DNA of 52,032 nt, taken from contig JBBQPO010000008.1 of NCBI GenBank assembly GCA_038217285.1, positions 1 to 52,032 of the forward strand, given 5' to 3'. A program made the translations under genes and the position numbers. The notes under the pieces were generated by a model, which worked only from the letters and a program-made list of their open reading frames with translations, made no database searches and was not told where the DNA came from. The DNA is from Chthonomonadales bacterium. Its GTDB lineage: Bacteria; Armatimonadota; Chthonomonadetes; Chthonomonadales; Chthonomonadaceae. Position 1 is the stretch's first letter. Every line of letters begins with the position of its first letter. Of the stretch, positions 40,687-46,277 are shown one piece after another.

Positions 40687-40819
40687 CGTTTATGCCTCTC
40701 CTCGCGCTTGCACACTCCGACGGGAATCGATAGTCGAGCCTATGGTAGCAGACCGGCACCCCTCTCGTCAAGCCGAACCGGGGCAGGAAAAAAGTGAGCC
40801 GTCGAAGAATATACGGAGC

Positions 40820-42325
40820 ATGAAATCACGAACCACCCGTCGATCCCTAGCGGCGGCTACTCTGCTGGCCTTGATGGTGACTGTGCTCCAAACTCCGTCC
40901 TCCCGGTGCCGCGCCGACGACGCCGGCACGGGAACCGATCCAGCTCTCGTCGAACGTATAGAGGCGCTCCTGGCCGACAAAACGCTCCAGACAGGCTTTC
41001 AGGGCCTCCTCATTCAGTCGCTCAAAGACCATACCACCCTCTATGAGCGCAACGCCGACAAGGTGTTCTTACCGGCATCCAATAATAAACTACTGACGTC
41101 CGGAGCAGCCCTTACTCTCCTGGGTCCGAGCTTTTTCTACACGACTCGCGTCGTCGCCGCCGTGCCGCCGGATCGCAAAGGTGTGCTTCACTCCGATCTC
41201 ACGCTGGTAGGTTCCGGAGATCCAGTCCTCTCGTCGGCCGATCTCACGGACCTCGCTCACTCGCTCAAGGCAGCCGGGATAAAGAGGATCGAAGGCGCCG
41301 TCACCGGCGACGACTCCCTGTTCGACCTGCAGCGCCTGGGCGATGGATGGACCTGGGACGACGAACCCTTCTACTACTCGGCGCAGGTGAGCGCCCTCAA
41401 CCTGAACGAGAATCTCGTGAGTGTCCGTGTCCTGCCTGGGATGAAAGAAGGCGATCCCGTTCGGGTTCTCGTGACACCGACGGAAAAGTACATGACGATT
41501 CGTAATCTGGCGAAGACCGCAGTCGCCAAAACAAAGTCTTCCATCCTTGTGGATCGCCTTCGTGGCCAGAATATCCTCATTGTCACCGGAGCGGTGGCCG
41601 TGGATACTACGGAACAGGACGCGCCCAAGGTGGCCGTGACCGTCGATGATCCGACGCAGTTCACCCTGACCGTCTTTCGCGAGGCCCTGGCCAGGGAGGG
41701 AATTCGGGTCGGCGGCAAGCGCTTCACGACGCCCTCCAGTACGGTGACTCTTGCCCAACATAGCTCCGTACCGCTCTCCGAAATCCTGAAGCTTCTCAAC
41801 AAACCCAGCGATAATCTGATCGCCGAGTGCCTGCTGAAGACAGTAGGCGCGTTCAAAAAAGGGAAGGGCACAGCGGGAGCCGACGGAACCGGCGCGCAGA
41901 CGGCGAGAGATCTCTTTAAATCGATAGGTATGGATGTGACGCACCTGAACCAGTCGGACGGCTCCGGCCTCTCGCGGTTCAATTTTGTCTCCCCCCGCGA
42001 CTTCGTCCAACTGCTCACGTACCTTCACAACCAATCGTCCTTCCCGGTCTTGTACGAATCACTTCCGATCGCGGGAGTCGACGGCTCGCTGCGTAATCGT
42101 CTGAAAAACAGTGCGGCGACCGGCAACTGCCATGCCAAAACCGGCTACATTTCGAGGGCGAGCAGTCTCAGCGGCTACATCACAACGAAGGATAACGAAA
42201 TGCTGGTCTTCTCTATATTAATGAACAATCACCTTTCGTCGAACGCGTTGCCCGTCTCCATTCAGGACAAGATCATGCTGCTGCTCGCGAACTACTCTCG
42301 CCCCGGTGTGCCCCATGCGCAGTGA
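40820..42325 (+). CDS. dacB: D-Ala-D-Ala carboxypeptidase/endopeptidase PBP4 (peptidase S13)
   Basis: Motifs PASNNK (SxxK), GSGDP, SDN, DGSGLSR and AKTG. ATG at 40820. Confidence 0.93.
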   Translation: MKSRTTRRSLAAATLLALMVTVLQTPSSRCRADDAGTGTDPALVERIEALLADKTLQTGFQGLLIQSLKDHTTLYERNADKVFLPASNNKLLTSGAALTLLGPSFFYTTRVVAAVPPDRKGVLHSDLTLVGSGDPVLSSADLTDLAHSLKAAGIKRIEGAVTGDDSLFDLQRLGDGWTWDDEPFYYSAQVSALNLNENLVSVRVLPGMKEGDPVRVLVTPTEKYMTIRNLAKTAVAKTKSSILVDRLRGQNILIVTGAVAVDTTEQDAPKVAVTVDDPTQFTLTVFREALAREGIRVGGKRFTTPSSTVTLAQHSSVPLSEILKLLNKPSDNLIAECLLKTVGAFKKGKGTAGADGTGAQTARDLFKSIGMDVTHLNQSDGSGLSRFNFVSPRDFVQLLTYLHNQSSFPVLYESLPIAGVDGSLRNRLKNSAATGNCHAKTGYISRASSLSGYITTKDNEMLVFSILMNNHLSSNALPVSIQDKIMLLLANYSRPGVPHAQ

Positions 42326-43427
42326 GGGCACCGCGCGCGCAGCCGTCATTCCCGGTCCAGGTCAACCTCCGGAAGTCCGAACCTACCTCATTCCTGAACT
42401 GGAACCGGGCGCGGTCCTTCTGCAAACGATTGCTTCCGAAGTCTGCGGCACCGATGTTCATCTCTGGCACGGGCGACTCGCCGGTGTCCCCTATCCTCTG
42501 ATCCCCGGCCATGTCAGCGTGGGCACGGTCGAGGCCGTCCGAGGAACCGTTGTCGATGTCGAAGGTATCCCGATCTGCAAGGGCGATGTCGTGACGTTCC
42601 TGGATGTACACGGAACCTGCGGCAGTTGCTGGTACTGCCTTGTCGCAAAGGCGAGCACCCGCTGCCCGCATCGCCGTGTCTACGGCATTACCTACGGAGC
42701 CGACGAAGGGCCCGGCCTCTCCGGGGGCTGGTCGGAACGCATCTATCTCCGGCCCAGCACGAAACTGCTGCGCCTCCTTCCCAACGTGTCGCCGGACGCC
42801 TGGATCGGCGCTGGCTGCGGACTGCCGACGGCCGTTCATGCCGTCGAACTCGCCCGCATACGGTTGGGCGACCGGGTGCTGATTCAAGGCAGTGGTCCGG
42901 TCGGACTCAGCGCCGCCATGTTGGCTCTTCTCAGTGGGGCCAGTTGGGTGGGTGTCCTCGGCGCTCCGGAGGAGAGACTTGCTACCGCCACCCGTGTCGG
43001 GGTAGACTGGACTGGAAATGTCACACAATTGACTCCGTCCGAACGAGCGGCGCAGATACGGGATGCGACAGGCGGGCGCGGACCTGACATCGTCATAGAA
43101 GCCAGCGGTAACCCGAATGCGGTTCCGGAAGGATGCGAGTTGGTTCGCGATGCTGGGCGCTATGTCGTCGTGGGACAGTATACGGATAACGGCTCGATCG
43201 AACTGAATCCGCACCTGCATATCAATCGCAAGCATCTGGAGATCCTGGGATGCTGGGGCTCTGACTTTTCTCATGTCTACCGTGCCATGGAGATCCTGGC
43301 GCGATTCGACCGCCGGATGCAGTGGTCGCAGCTCATTACCCGGCGCTACGGACTGAATGAAGTTGGTCTGGCGCTAGCCGATGTCGAAGCGAGACGGGTG
43401 GTCAAAGCCGTCGTTCTGCCCTCCTGA
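42315..43427 (+). CDS. Zinc-dependent medium-chain alcohol dehydrogenase
   Basis: Motifs CGTD and GHV (usually GHE), structural Zn site CGSCWYC...C, and GSGPVG. Confidence 0.9.
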   Translation: MRSEGTARAAVIPGPGQPPEVRTYLIPELEPGAVLLQTIASEVCGTDVHLWHGRLAGVPYPLIPGHVSVGTVEAVRGTVVDVEGIPICKGDVVTFLDVHGTCGSCWYCLVAKASTRCPHRRVYGITYGADEGPGLSGGWSERIYLRPSTKLLRLLPNVSPDAWIGAGCGLPTAVHAVELARIRLGDRVLIQGSGPVGLSAAMLALLSGASWVGVLGAPEERLATATRVGVDWTGNVTQLTPSERAAQIRDATGGRGPDIVIEASGNPNAVPEGCELVRDAGRYVVVGQYTDNGSIELNPHLHINRKHLEILGCWGSDFSHVYRAMEILARFDRRMQWSQLITRRYGLNEVGLALADVEARRVVKAVVLPS

Positions 43428-43437
43428 AGAGGCCAAC

Positions 43438-44493
43438 ATGCAGCATTCGGATACTATTTCCCAGGTCAACGCGCTGACGCAACGATTTTACACCAAAGAC
43501 GTCGCATGCGAAACCACGCTCTCCGCGCTGATGGAGTGTGTCCGGCCTGCGATCCGCAAGCGCCTTCAGGACAAGCATATTCTGGGCGATGACCTGGAGG
43601 ATCTCTACATCGAGACGGCGGAACGCCTGCTGACGGCGACCCGCCGCAGCCGTGAGCAGACGGATCACCATATCGGCAACTATATCAGTTATGCGCTCAC
43701 CGTGGCCGATACGGTCTTCGAAGATCATATCCGGCGCACCAAACCCAACTGGTGCCGACTGAAGCGCCGCATCCTCTACCTGCTGGATAACAAGACTGGG
43801 AACAAGGTCTTCGCCCGATGGCGTCTCAGCCTGCGCTGGCTCGGCGGCCTCTTTACCTGGCAGGGACAAACGTTCCAGCCCACGCGTACCTATAACGTTC
43901 TCTGCTCGGAACCGGATTCACTCTGCAGTCTGATATTTGCCCATCGCTCCCCCGAACATGTTCCCCTGCCGGAACTGCTGGCGCGCCTCTTCCGTTGGCT
44001 CGAAACTCCCCTCGAACTGGACGAGTTGACCAACCACATCGCCCAACTGCAGGGTATCGCCGATCACCTTCCCCACTCTCTCGAAGGTCTGGCAATGGTC
44101 GCCGAACGAGACACCGACTATTTCCTCCCGCCATCGTCGCATGACGTAGCGTCCGAAGTGATGGAGGCGCTCTCCAGTGAAGCGTTCCGCAAACGGATCT
44201 GGGACATCCTGTGCGAAGTGCCAATTCGCCAACGCATCGCCCTCCTTTTCGCGATGCCGCGCGATGAGGTTCTGCTGCTCGGCAGGGTCACGGAGATCGC
44301 GGCGGCAGTCGAACTGCCCTTACAGCAGTTCGCAGCGATCTGGCAGCAACTCCCGCTCTCCGATAAGGAGATCGCCGAGCGCCTGGAAATCACCCCGAAG
44401 CAGGTTTCCAACCTTCGCAAGTGTGCGAGAGAACGCATCTATCGCTGGCTGGCCCGTAAAGAAGTCGAACCGGATCAGCACAGCAATCGCTAA
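43438..44493 (+). CDS. Atypical sigma-70/ECF-like sigma factor with a long internal insertion
   Basis: Region-2-like 'DDLEDLYIETAERLL...NYISYALTVADTVFEDHIRR' and region-4-like 'VPIRQRIALL...LSDKEIAERLEITPKQVSNLRKCARERI'. It is followed by a ZAS-domain gene. Confidence 0.75.
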   Translation: MQHSDTISQVNALTQRFYTKDVACETTLSALMECVRPAIRKRLQDKHILGDDLEDLYIETAERLLTATRRSREQTDHHIGNYISYALTVADTVFEDHIRRTKPNWCRLKRRILYLLDNKTGNKVFARWRLSLRWLGGLFTWQGQTFQPTRTYNVLCSEPDSLCSLIFAHRSPEHVPLPELLARLFRWLETPLELDELTNHIAQLQGIADHLPHSLEGLAMVAERDTDYFLPPSSHDVASEVMEALSSEAFRKRIWDILCEVPIRQRIALLFAMPRDEVLLLGRVTEIAAAVELPLQQFAAIWQQLPLSDKEIAERLEITPKQVSNLRKCARERIYRWLARKEVEPDQHSNR

Positions 44494-44609
44494 CATTCTC
44501 GCAGTCCGTCAATTCCACATTCCCGGAAGAAAACTTGAAATGACAACTACATCGAACGCCACGGACGGTAGCCTGGTCCGTGATTCGGCGTCTGTATCAA
44601 GCTATCATC

Positions 44610-46277
44610 ATGGTTAACCACCTCTCGGCAGAACAACAGACGCGCTATCGAACCGGCGCCATCGTCAACGACCAGGAGCTGCAGGAGATCGACGCTCATC
44701 TGACGATCTGCGCCTCCTGTCGCGACGCGCTCTTCCACGCCCTGCGTGATAATACCGGCACACTGCGCCGGTCGCTTCTGCCTGCCCGTGACGAGCCGCA
44801 CTGCCTCGACGACCAGACGATCACCGGTTACGTGCGCGGTCAACTCGATGCCACGGATCGGGAAGTGGTCGAGGCGCATCTCGCCCTCTGTCCGCGGTGT
44901 GCTGAGGATGTGGCGTCGCTCCAGGCCTTTCATGAACAGATGCTGCGTTTCGACTGGACGACGCTCCCCGCAGAGACGCTGCGCGAGCGCCTGCGCCGCT
45001 GGTTCCACTTTCACGAATTCGGCCCCTTGCCGACCTTCCGCCAGGTGCATGAATGGTGGGAACACTACACACTCACCGCGAGAATTGTCACGGCGCTTAT
45101 TGTCGGTCTCTTGCTAGGCCTACTGCTTGGCGAGAGAGCCACGATCCTCGAACCGGTCCACGTTATCATCCTGCGTCTGCTCGGCGCACTGGCCACACCG
45201 TTGATCTTCGTCGCGATCATCCATGCCTTCCTCAAGGCGAATATGAACGCCGCCACAGCACGCAAGCTGGTCGTACTGCTCCTGACCAATACGCTGTTCG
45301 CCATTGTCGTCGGACTGATTGTCGTGAACGTTTTCAAACCCGGGAAGCATGTGAGCGTCGAGGGCGCCAATCAGATCGCGGACGTAGCCTCCCTGCATTC
45401 GCTGGCGCACAAGATGCCGCCCAGTATCCTCTCCGCCATGGCCGAGAACAACATCGTCTACGTCATTCTTGCGGCCATCGGGATCGGAATCGCCGTCCGT
45501 GCCGTCCGGCAGGAACAACAGCGCGAGGGTAGGAACGGCTACAAAGTGATCGAGGACCTGGCCGAAGTGACCTTCCTCACGCTCACGAAGATGATCCGAT
45601 GGGTCATTGCCCTCGTGCCGTTCGCCGTCTGCGCCATCATCGCCAACCTCGTTGGGCGCAAGGACTTCGAGACGGTGCGATCCCTCGGAGGCTTCGTCGG
45701 CACCGTCCTGTTCGCCCTATGCATCCAGGCGTTGTACTATCTGGTGCGGCTGCGTATGGGATCGTGGGTCACCCCTTCTCACTTCCTGCGCGCCGGACGC
45801 AGCGCATTTTTGACCGCGTTCTGGACCGCAAGTTCCGCCGCCACCATGCCCGTGACCTATCGCTGCATGCGGGAACGTGTCGGCCTGCGCGACGAGTCGA
45901 CCAGCCTGGGCATCCTGGTCGGCGGCAGCCTCAATCGTGATGGAACCGCCCTTTACCAGACGATGGCCTCTATTTTCGTAGCCCAACTCAGCGGCGTTCC
46001 CATTGCCCTGCCTCGACAACTCACGGTGATCCTGACCTCCGTCATGGCTTCGGTCGGCGCGCCGGGCATCCCGGAAGCGGGAATGGTCACCATGCTGATG
46101 ATCTTCCGCTCACTGGGCCTGCGCGAAGAGTATATCGGCCTCCTGTTGGCCGTCGACTGGCTCCTCGACCGCTGCCGAACCATGGTCAATGTCATGGGTC
46201 ATACCAGCGTCACGTGCATCCTCGATGGCAAAGAGCGGCCTCTCGAAGCTGTCCGGAGCGCCCCAGCCGTTCTCTAA
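44610..46277 (+). CDS. Fusion of two zf-HC2 (ZAS) anti-sigma domains to a dicarboxylate/amino acid:cation symporter (DAACS/SLC1)
   Basis: HLTICASC and HLALCPRC (HxxxCxxC) are followed in frame by DAACS motifs PLIF, AFWTASSAATMP, NRDGTALY, SVGAPGIPEAG and VDWLLDRCRTMVNV. Confidence 0.88.
   Translation: MVNHLSAEQQTRYRTGAIVNDQELQEIDAHLTICASCRDALFHALRDNTGTLRRSLLPARDEPHCLDDQTITGYVRGQLDATDREVVEAHLALCPRCAEDVASLQAFHEQMLRFDWTTLPAETLRERLRRWFHFHEFGPLPTFRQVHEWWEHYTLTARIVTALIVGLLLGLLLGERATILEPVHVIILRLLGALATPLIFVAIIHAFLKANMNAATARKLVVLLLTNTLFAIVVGLIVVNVFKPGKHVSVEGANQIADVASLHSLAHKMPPSILSAMAENNIVYVILAAIGIGIAVRAVRQEQQREGRNGYKVIEDLAEVTFLTLTKMIRWVIALVPFAVCAIIANLVGRKDFETVRSLGGFVGTVLFALCIQALYYLVRLRMGSWVTPSHFLRAGRSAFLTAFWTASSAATMPVTYRCMRERVGLRDESTSLGILVGGSLNRDGTALYQTMASIFVAQLSGVPIALPRQLTVILTSVMASVGAPGIPEAGMVTMLMIFRSLGLREEYIGLLLAVDWLLDRCRTMVNVMGHTSVTCILDGKERPLEAVRSAPAVL

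Follow-up and report, generated by a model that had tools for sequence, protein, structure and literature searches.

A complete SLC1 carrier domain with altered coupling residues fused to a tandem ZAS anti-sigma domain in Chthonomonadales: a candidate amino-acid-gated regulator of an atypical sigma factor

SLC1 (DAACS) carriers can be sorted by their coupling ions through a handful of positions: in GltPh numbering, PMC12668577 gives [S/T]92-93, N310, [M/S]311, [D/E]312 and [D/E]405 as the signature of the Na+-coupled members, and a hydrophobic residue at 92, L311 and N405 as that of the H+-coupled bacterial carriers of the GltP/GltT type. The same source describes coupling that changes or is lost with the ion sites intact, and hence motif readings of coupling are unreliable. 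M311 has been reported to link the Na1 site, the substrate and the Na2 site (PMC4051121, PMC7673805). In GltPh the gate is described as open in the D405N and D405A variants, with D405N binding Asp without Na+ (bioRxiv 2021.11.29.470416), and changes of E404 in EAAT2 are reported to yield a homoexchanger or to remove H+ coupling (PMC6769379). In the exchanger LaINDY, the two cation sites are filled by Arg159 and His392 and, according to PMC7553777, movement needs bound substrate; the carrier-based sensor CbrA is reported to induce a separate main importer (PMC13022988). Among anti-sigma factors, those in the ECF classification of PMC7826278 carry one to six helices, and the passages covered here mention no symporter-fused form. 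Likewise, such a fusion was not found in the openly accessible literature searched on anti-sigma factors and SLC1, on ECF factors in Armatimonadetes or on bacterial transceptors, and the ESM Atlas holds no cluster for a ZAS/SDF fusion (best 0.80).

A gene of this kind lies in the window, by which we mean the whole 52,032-nucleotide stretch of DNA that was analysed. The relevant features are as follows (residues of the fused protein are numbered from the GTG at 44580, not from the ATG at 44610):

40744..40770, + strand: promoter-like motif, copy 1, GGTAGC-N16-CGTCA, before dacB; conserved in G000-G003
40820..42325, + strand: dacB-like D-Ala-D-Ala carboxypeptidase (Peptidase_S13, Pfam E 1e-113), first gene of a probable operon
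42306..43427, + strand: Zn-dependent dehydrogenase, 5' of the sigma gene in 6/6 cassette loci examined
43438..44493, + strand: atypical sigma factor of ECF-like type (351 aa), its regions 2 and 4 separated by a long insert; weak profile and fold matches
44567..44593, + strand: promoter-like motif, copy 2, GGTAGC-N16-CGTCT, 16 nt before the fused gene; in 5/5 genomes of the genus and three metagenome loci
44580-46277, + strand: fused ZAS/SLC1 ORF, probable start ATG 44610, 555 aa
44610..44954, + strand: tandem ZAS anti-sigma domain with two HxxxCxxC motifs at the N-terminus of the fused ORF (PF13490, zf-HC2, two stretches)
45072..46226, + strand: complete SLC1/DAACS (SDF) domain (PF00375 positions 1-385 of 387, E 8e-93)
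45288..45293, + strand: TM3 Na3-site positions (GltPh T92/S93, here Asn/Thr), as in unfused relatives
45813..45848, + strand: HP1 AFWTASSAATMP, its serine pair kept (sequence, alignment)
45933..45947, + strand: TM7 NRDGT, with the Arg codon CGT at 45936-45938 (GltPh M311); His or Asn in unfused relatives
45957..45959, + strand: Gln at the position of GltPh Q318 and the EAAT proton-site Glu; Glu in unfused relatives and in 6/22 fused rows
46074..46076, + strand: HP2 Glu E499 (GltPh G357), a trait of the whole subfamily; altered in 5/7 distant fused-clade rows
46167..46202, + strand: TM8 DRCRTMVNVMGH, with D394/R397/T398/N401 kept and the His codon CAT at 46200-46202 (Na1 ligand D405)

The N-terminus of SLC1 proteins is cytoplasmic. 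In the fused protein it displays the HxxxCxxC zinc motif that marks ZAS anti-sigma domains (PF13490), and all six zinc-ligand residues are invariant in 12 of the 12 fused rows aligned. The remainder belongs to PF00375, with 311.9 bits over a curated cut-off of 27.9. Its predicted model matches the GltPh and EAAT folds (Foldseek TM up to 0.80 of the target); the likeness of the AlphaFold model to inward-facing structures is given no weight as evidence. The core scores higher against EAAT2/3 than against GltPh, EAAT2 and EAAT3 being the closest among solved structures. Alignment to GltPh chains places R453 at M311, H541 at D405, Q460 at Q318 and T456 at T314, and D530, R533, T534 and N537 at D394, R397, T398 and N401, respectively. 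Thus, the Arg and His noted in a preliminary description of this DNA are confirmed, codons included, as is its claim that the aspartate-binding residues D394, R397, T398, N401 and T314 are retained, the substrate positions being kept in 196 of 198 cells of the fused rows. By sequence, the acidic amino acid pocket (S277/S278, T314, D394, R397, T398, N401) is complete, and the Na3 ligand positions N237, T238, N452 and D454 are identical to those of unfused relatives. With Asn92, Arg311 and His405 the protein departs from both the Na+-coupled and the bacterial H+-coupled signature, the GltP and DctA models scoring far under cut-off, and it has Gln where EAAT-type H+ coupling has Glu (GltPh Q318). 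Hence, fold and pocket place it in SLC1, but outside both signature classes.

The fused proteins form one clade (SH-aLRT 99 in a quick IQ-TREE run on 57 rows, with FastTree in agreement), sister to unfused carriers with NHDGT; the wider subfamily has NNDGT. The preliminary description took NMDGT as the starting motif, which does not hold: Met311 was lost long before the fusion, as judged from these sequences, the ancestral residue in the sister clade being His. The step at 311 was therefore His to Arg, a one-base change, and not Met to Arg. The fused gene is best explained as having arisen by duplication of the EAAT-like NHDGT carrier for acidic amino acids found in this lineage. A sequencing or assembly artefact is rejected, since orthologues differ by synonymous codons (CGT, CGC or CGA at 311; CAT or CAC at 405) and contigs from an independent run (X2) cover the fused gene including the ZAS/SDF junction region. 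A pseudogene is likewise rejected: in comparisons of the window with G001, G002 and L095 the core shows dN/dS of about 0.07-0.08 (at dS 0.6-1.2), below that of the scaffold, and by this sequence measure the core is under strong purifying selection. In L071/G411, where the fused gene is frameshifted, metH is hit as well. A salt bridge between Arg311 and Glu357 was considered as the reason for the Arg and set aside, Glu357 being altered in five of the seven distant rows. Armatimonadota, Cyanobacteria and Planctomycetes share a large, uncharacterised SLC1 subfamily of bacterial carriers, comprising L001/L024:7560-8891 and its relatives; its traits are NHDGT/NNDGT, GIPEAG, the proton-site Glu and Asn at T92.

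To survey these positions we pooled homologues, which gave 334 distinct domain sequences; after removal of 12 with gaps or misalignment at the sites, a ZAS was visible in 22 rows and not in the other 300. These rows are not independent of one another: a single genus-level clade supplies 16 of the 22 ZAS-bearing ones. Arg311 is present in 22/22 ZAS-bearing rows and D405 in 0/22, position 405 being His in 19, Thr in two and Ala in one, whereas D405 is kept in 286 of the 300 others. In those 300, residue 311 is Asn in 106, His in 102, Met in 53 and Ser in 22, and more rarely Lys (seven), Arg (four) or another residue (six). The four Arg311 rows all group with the fusion and are no counter-examples: L060, L102 and P0177 are fragments, and L071 has a frameshift, its ZAS lying in an overlapping frame. 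The loss of D405 together with Arg311 is thus real, conserved and specific to the fusion, and the substitutions are not common in unfused close homologues, which would have argued against the first reading of this gene. The exclusivity of Arg311 is qualified, on sequence grounds, from two directions. P0143, within the fused clade, has His311 with His405, and P0166, 84% like it and in or beside that clade, has His311 too, the N-terminus of both being missing; and Lys311 arose separately in unfused proteins. The expectation that Arg and His would co-occur solely with the ZAS therefore stands for Arg311 and for the loss of D405 but not for His405, which is not universal. In the G019/G390 fused branch residue 405 is Thr, Ala or Gly, so that the conserved trait is the loss of the carboxylate, not a second positive charge. 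Any of His, Thr, Ala and Gly might be usable there, given the open gate of D405N and D405A GltPh and the Na+-free Asp binding of D405N. In 16 of the 22 fused rows, comprising the window's branch, the proton-site Glu of the unfused relatives is Gln, and N310 is Ser in two of the seven distant fused-clade rows. The preliminary description had offered an uncoupled, an H+-dependent or a non-transporting receptor; the second is the least likely of the three for the window's branch, since this has Gln in place of the EAAT-type proton-site Glu and departs from the signature of bacterial H+ coupling.

A DNA pattern scan for NRDGTAL[YF][QE], which variants such as SRDGT escape, gave 28 matches in the genome collection and 46 in metagenomes. 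The ten SDF matches with Arg (6/28 and 4/46, respectively) all come from the Chthonomonadales fused lineage; the others are 29 SDF genes with Ser, matched through codon degeneracy, and 35 non-SDF sequences. SDF proteins with NSDGT (Ser at M311) are widespread (L055, L057, L058, L062, L068, L076, L078, L079 and 21 metagenome loci). In the tree, the seven unfused Lys311 proteins arise outside the fused clade; D405 is lost in 5/7, and their pocket has decayed, with 48 of 63 substrate cells kept versus 196 of 198 in the fused rows. They are possibly pseudo-transporters. One is named from a cyanobacterium, NKDGT is common to six of the 120 proteins in a search with that protein, and the group showed no plasmid match and no close orthologue among 401 genomes of the phylum. 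P0141, P0144, P0150, P0152, P0153, P0271-P0274 and P0277, unfused Lys311 paralogues with a decayed pocket and D405 lost, nest among cyanobacterial-type NNDGT carriers, P0141 and P0144 both coming from a 3221-base contig; P0138 and P0170 are separate from this group, likewise unfused and with Lys311 and pocket decay. Among longer SDF fusions (25 matches), the 20 long bacterial-type rows inspected all show a TM7 motif of canonical type, with neither Arg nor Lys at 311. A set of SDF proteins 770-880 aa in length (P0195, P0201, P0203, P0209, P0221, P0387-P0399) combines canonical-type motifs with long Lys/Arg-rich C-terminal tails that have no Pfam match.

The gene directly upstream of the fusion encodes the presumptive partner. 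Its Pfam region 2 and 4 matches fall under cut-off, TIGR02937 gives 42.8 bits against a cut-off of 42.9, and a fold search returns sigma factors, weakly and none at E<=0.001. This sigma family occurs in 21 of 68 genomes of the class, and the ~350-aa, insert-bearing members (43438-44493 in the window, L126-L155) with few exceptions precede genes for tandem-ZAS proteins whose C-terminal parts vary; outside the cassette these consist of a single helix with an outer domain or of a soluble domain. As the same sigma family pairs elsewhere with a ZAS and other C-terminal parts, the carrier occupies the position of the usual sensory part. A second sigma of the family in G000 (G000:C159:8750-9942; L023:6797-9365, - strand) is split into two frames; the gene after it encodes an anti-sigma with tandem ZAS and a single helix, and is itself preceded by a similar promoter-like motif. 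In the ESM Atlas the neighbours of the ~350-aa family are unnamed clusters, mostly from Acidobacteriota. A complex model of the sigma with the ZAS pair scored 0.76, the best control reaching 0.29; the mark applied to such models is reached by 116/157 solved pairs versus 2/215 mismatched ones, and likeness to solved sigma/anti-sigma pairs may contribute to the score. Between runs, 86% or more of the contacts recur, the partner's pLDDT is 82 or higher, and the predicted contacts include the region-4 helix-turn-helix stretch and the insert. This modelling supports binding of the neighbouring sigma by the ZAS pair and, with the gene neighbourhood, backs the sensor role suggested at the outset.

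The cassette was found in eight genomes of two genera, with the fused gene directly 3' of the sigma gene in 8/8. In four genomes (G002, G019, G390 and G411) the cassette is directly followed by an unfused carrier gene, and G000 has such a gene on a different contig (C82:12583-13821 region). G001 (86% complete) and G004 (73%) yielded no SDF besides the fused copy, and a search for an NHDGT-type unfused partner found none in G001, G003 and G004, which are incomplete genomes. The dacB-like gene is syntenic in G001 and G002. The dehydrogenase, 73-81% identical across cassette loci, carries GHV in place of the GHE usual in its family, and G390 and G411 have an unannotated ORF between dehydrogenase and sigma (L283:7374-8075, L284:6657-7145). 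G019 alone has DgcA-like and DgcN-like genes that converge on those of the carriers (L026:5039-7299); a link to D-glutamate was rejected, such genes adjoining the carrier in 1/15 loci and both scoring under NCBIfam cut-offs.

Two copies of the promoter-like motif lie in the window against 0.34 expected, a count that 4 of 100 shuffles reach. Copy 1 is a candidate autoregulatory promoter of the dacB-dehydrogenase-sigma run. In the form RGTAGM-N16-CGTC, the motif stands 42-43 nt 5' of the start of the fused gene in 5/5 genomes of the genus, as well as at three loci from metagenomes. The genes overlap in the second genus, and there the motif precedes the sigma gene in 3/3 genomes; as the motif was defined in the first genus, this is an independent test. 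Beyond the cassette, it is found before dacB in 3/3 cassette genomes versus 0/25 others and before one SPFH operon in 4/7 versus 0/20 (for both, rows with short upstream DNA were omitted and each search was held to at most 30 loci), before a second SPFH operon in 2/3 versus 0/16, and before a SigW-like sigma in 2/7 versus 0/23. A looser form precedes the anti-sigma gene in 4/19 other loci of the sigma family (shuffle mean 0.11). Genome-wide the motif shows no enrichment, and the cassette genomes represent two genera and few lineages. The conserved targets are dacB, SPFH/flotillin-like operons, secreted and membrane proteins and an AAA ATPase; the SPFH operons hold a small upstream membrane gene, NfeD-like by position only, with no Pfam match. 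TIGR04222 and DUF4126 genes are preceded by the motif in single genomes, and G000:C308:6270-6881, a secreted-looking protein with no Pfam match, has it 5' in 4/4 genomes of the genus examined. The SigW-like sigma is disfavoured as the owner of the motif: it is near-universal (60/68 genomes), yet the motif is tied to cassette genomes and precedes the SigW-like gene in these only. We infer that the cassette sigma reads GGTAGC-N16-CGTC. The joining to a ZAS domain and the loss of coupling residues with the pocket kept suggest that the fused protein is a membrane sensor acting on the sigma and, probably, on genes of the cell envelope.

The reading we favour, at roughly even odds (about 0.5), is that the fused protein is an acidic-amino-acid-gated sensor, exchange-only or non-concentrative, that controls the sigma factor by analogy with the DASS exchangers and the CbrA transceptor. 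Its most plausible mode of action is that of a transceptor with cation-surrogate chemistry. The carrier would have replaced the single helix that usually forms the sensory part of tandem-ZAS anti-sigma factors; the cytoplasmic ZAS pair, as modelled, would hold the neighbouring sigma. The sequence shows the pocket kept, the Na1 carboxylate lost and a permanent Arg gained at the NMD switch; the window's branch has lost the proton-site Glu as well. We posit that the pocket might be preset in a cation-bound-like state, binding Glu or Asp with little need for Na+, and that the transport domain would move mainly when loaded. The protein would then work by exchange or non-concentrative transport, its conformation signalling whether an amino acid is bound, and movement of the transport domain may free the sigma, directly or via proteolysis. 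The freed sigma would transcribe the genes behind GGTAGC-N16-CGTC, namely the cassette, dacB and the flotillin-like operons; further targets would be the SigW-like sigma, in one of the genera, and probably the downstream unfused carrier of G002. The placing of the Arg in the Na2 pocket is an analogy. Against the favoured reading stand the intact Na3 ligands, His311 in P0143, the fused copy as the sole SDF found in the incomplete genomes G001 and G004, motif targets that are envelope genes rather than amino-acid catabolism and the lack of genome-wide motif enrichment, along with the reports that substrate uptake persists in D405N GltPh (PMC6769379) and that CbrA, with Lys in its Na2 site, is yet an H+-driven transporter (PMC13022988).

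Several of these points would be accommodated by a transceptor that, like CbrA, retains ion-coupled net uptake (one Na+ at Na3, or H+ via His405) and signals from flux: the whole domain and the Na3 ligands are intact, CbrA and the functional D405N GltPh provide precedents, and in G001 and G004 no other SDF was found. We nevertheless deem it unlikely. A titratable residue is not required at 405, which is Thr, Ala or Gly in one branch; Arg itself is poorly titratable; N310 is Ser in 2/7 distant rows and the proton-site Glu is Gln in 16/22; and in G002, G019, G390 and G411 an unfused carrier is available directly downstream. More improbable still is a sensor of energy or membrane stress, in which a net-positive transport domain would shift with membrane potential or pH, the amino acid being a constant co-ligand. 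The motif targets (dacB, SPFH/flotillin operons, secreted and membrane proteins, a SigW-like sigma) would suit it, as would the charge-compensation model, in which a positively charged elevator domain feels its electrical surroundings and of which voltage sensing would be an extension; but the regulon is drawn from motif conservation, the strict retention of the pocket points to ligand sensing, and four genomes have the unfused carrier next door. A locked or passive subunit with its transport switched off, serving as an anti-sigma anchor, in mixed trimers with a working carrier or as a protease target on envelope damage, is equally improbable: the fused protein is sister to and often adjoins an unfused carrier, and the degenerate Lys311 paralogues show that switched-off copies arise, but its pocket is far better kept than theirs (196/198 versus 48/63 cells), its core is more conserved than its scaffold, and the incomplete genomes G001, G003 and G004 yielded no NHDGT-type partner.

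Beyond the favoured sensor, we tentatively raise the broader and rather doubtful picture of a receptor with built-in cation surrogates, whose ligand- or voltage-gated movement would free an unclassified sigma towards an envelope regulon, with extracellular Glu/Asp as a damage signal; the glutamate or aspartate might leak from damaged cells or be released from peptidoglycan. If true, SLC1 would join the few carrier folds used as signalling receptors, and ECF signalling would gain a new type of input. The fused and unfused pair in one genome, differing at M311, D405 and the proton-site Glu by one base each, amounts to an experiment that nature has run under selection on the most thoroughly studied coupling switch among glutamate transporters, making the step from symporter to exchanger or receptor directly testable, with the candidate promoter as a ready reporter.

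Against known systems, the cassette shares with the RsiW-type membrane ZAS anti-sigmas a cytoplasmic HxxxCxxC domain, a gene beside that of the sigma and a predicted envelope-type regulon with flotillin-like operons. It differs from them in having two ZAS units, a 351-aa insert-bearing sigma and a whole carrier as the membrane part. With the SLC1/DAACS carriers (GltPh, GltTk, EAAT1-3, GltP/DctA) the fused protein has in common the full fold, the HP1 serines and T314, D390, D394, R397, T398 and N401, but it has Arg at M311, no Asp405 and an N-terminal tandem ZAS. The DASS exchangers (LaINDY) likewise place Arg and His where cotransporters bind Na+ and use an elevator mechanism (PMC7553777), but their fold is unrelated and they have no signalling domain; the likeness is drawn from sequence, His405 not being universal in the fused clade. 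In E. coli, DctA/DcuS co-sensing also involves a DAACS carrier in sensing (PMC11109136), although there the proteins are separate, the carrier is a working H+ symporter and the output is a kinase. Finally, the CbrA/CrbS SLC5-STAC proteins share the fusion of a secondary carrier to a signalling output and a basic residue at the Na+ site (PMC13022988); they differ in their LeuT fold, C-terminal histidine kinase and proven H+-driven uptake, whereas the protein described here joins an elevator-type SLC1 carrier to an N-terminal anti-sigma domain.
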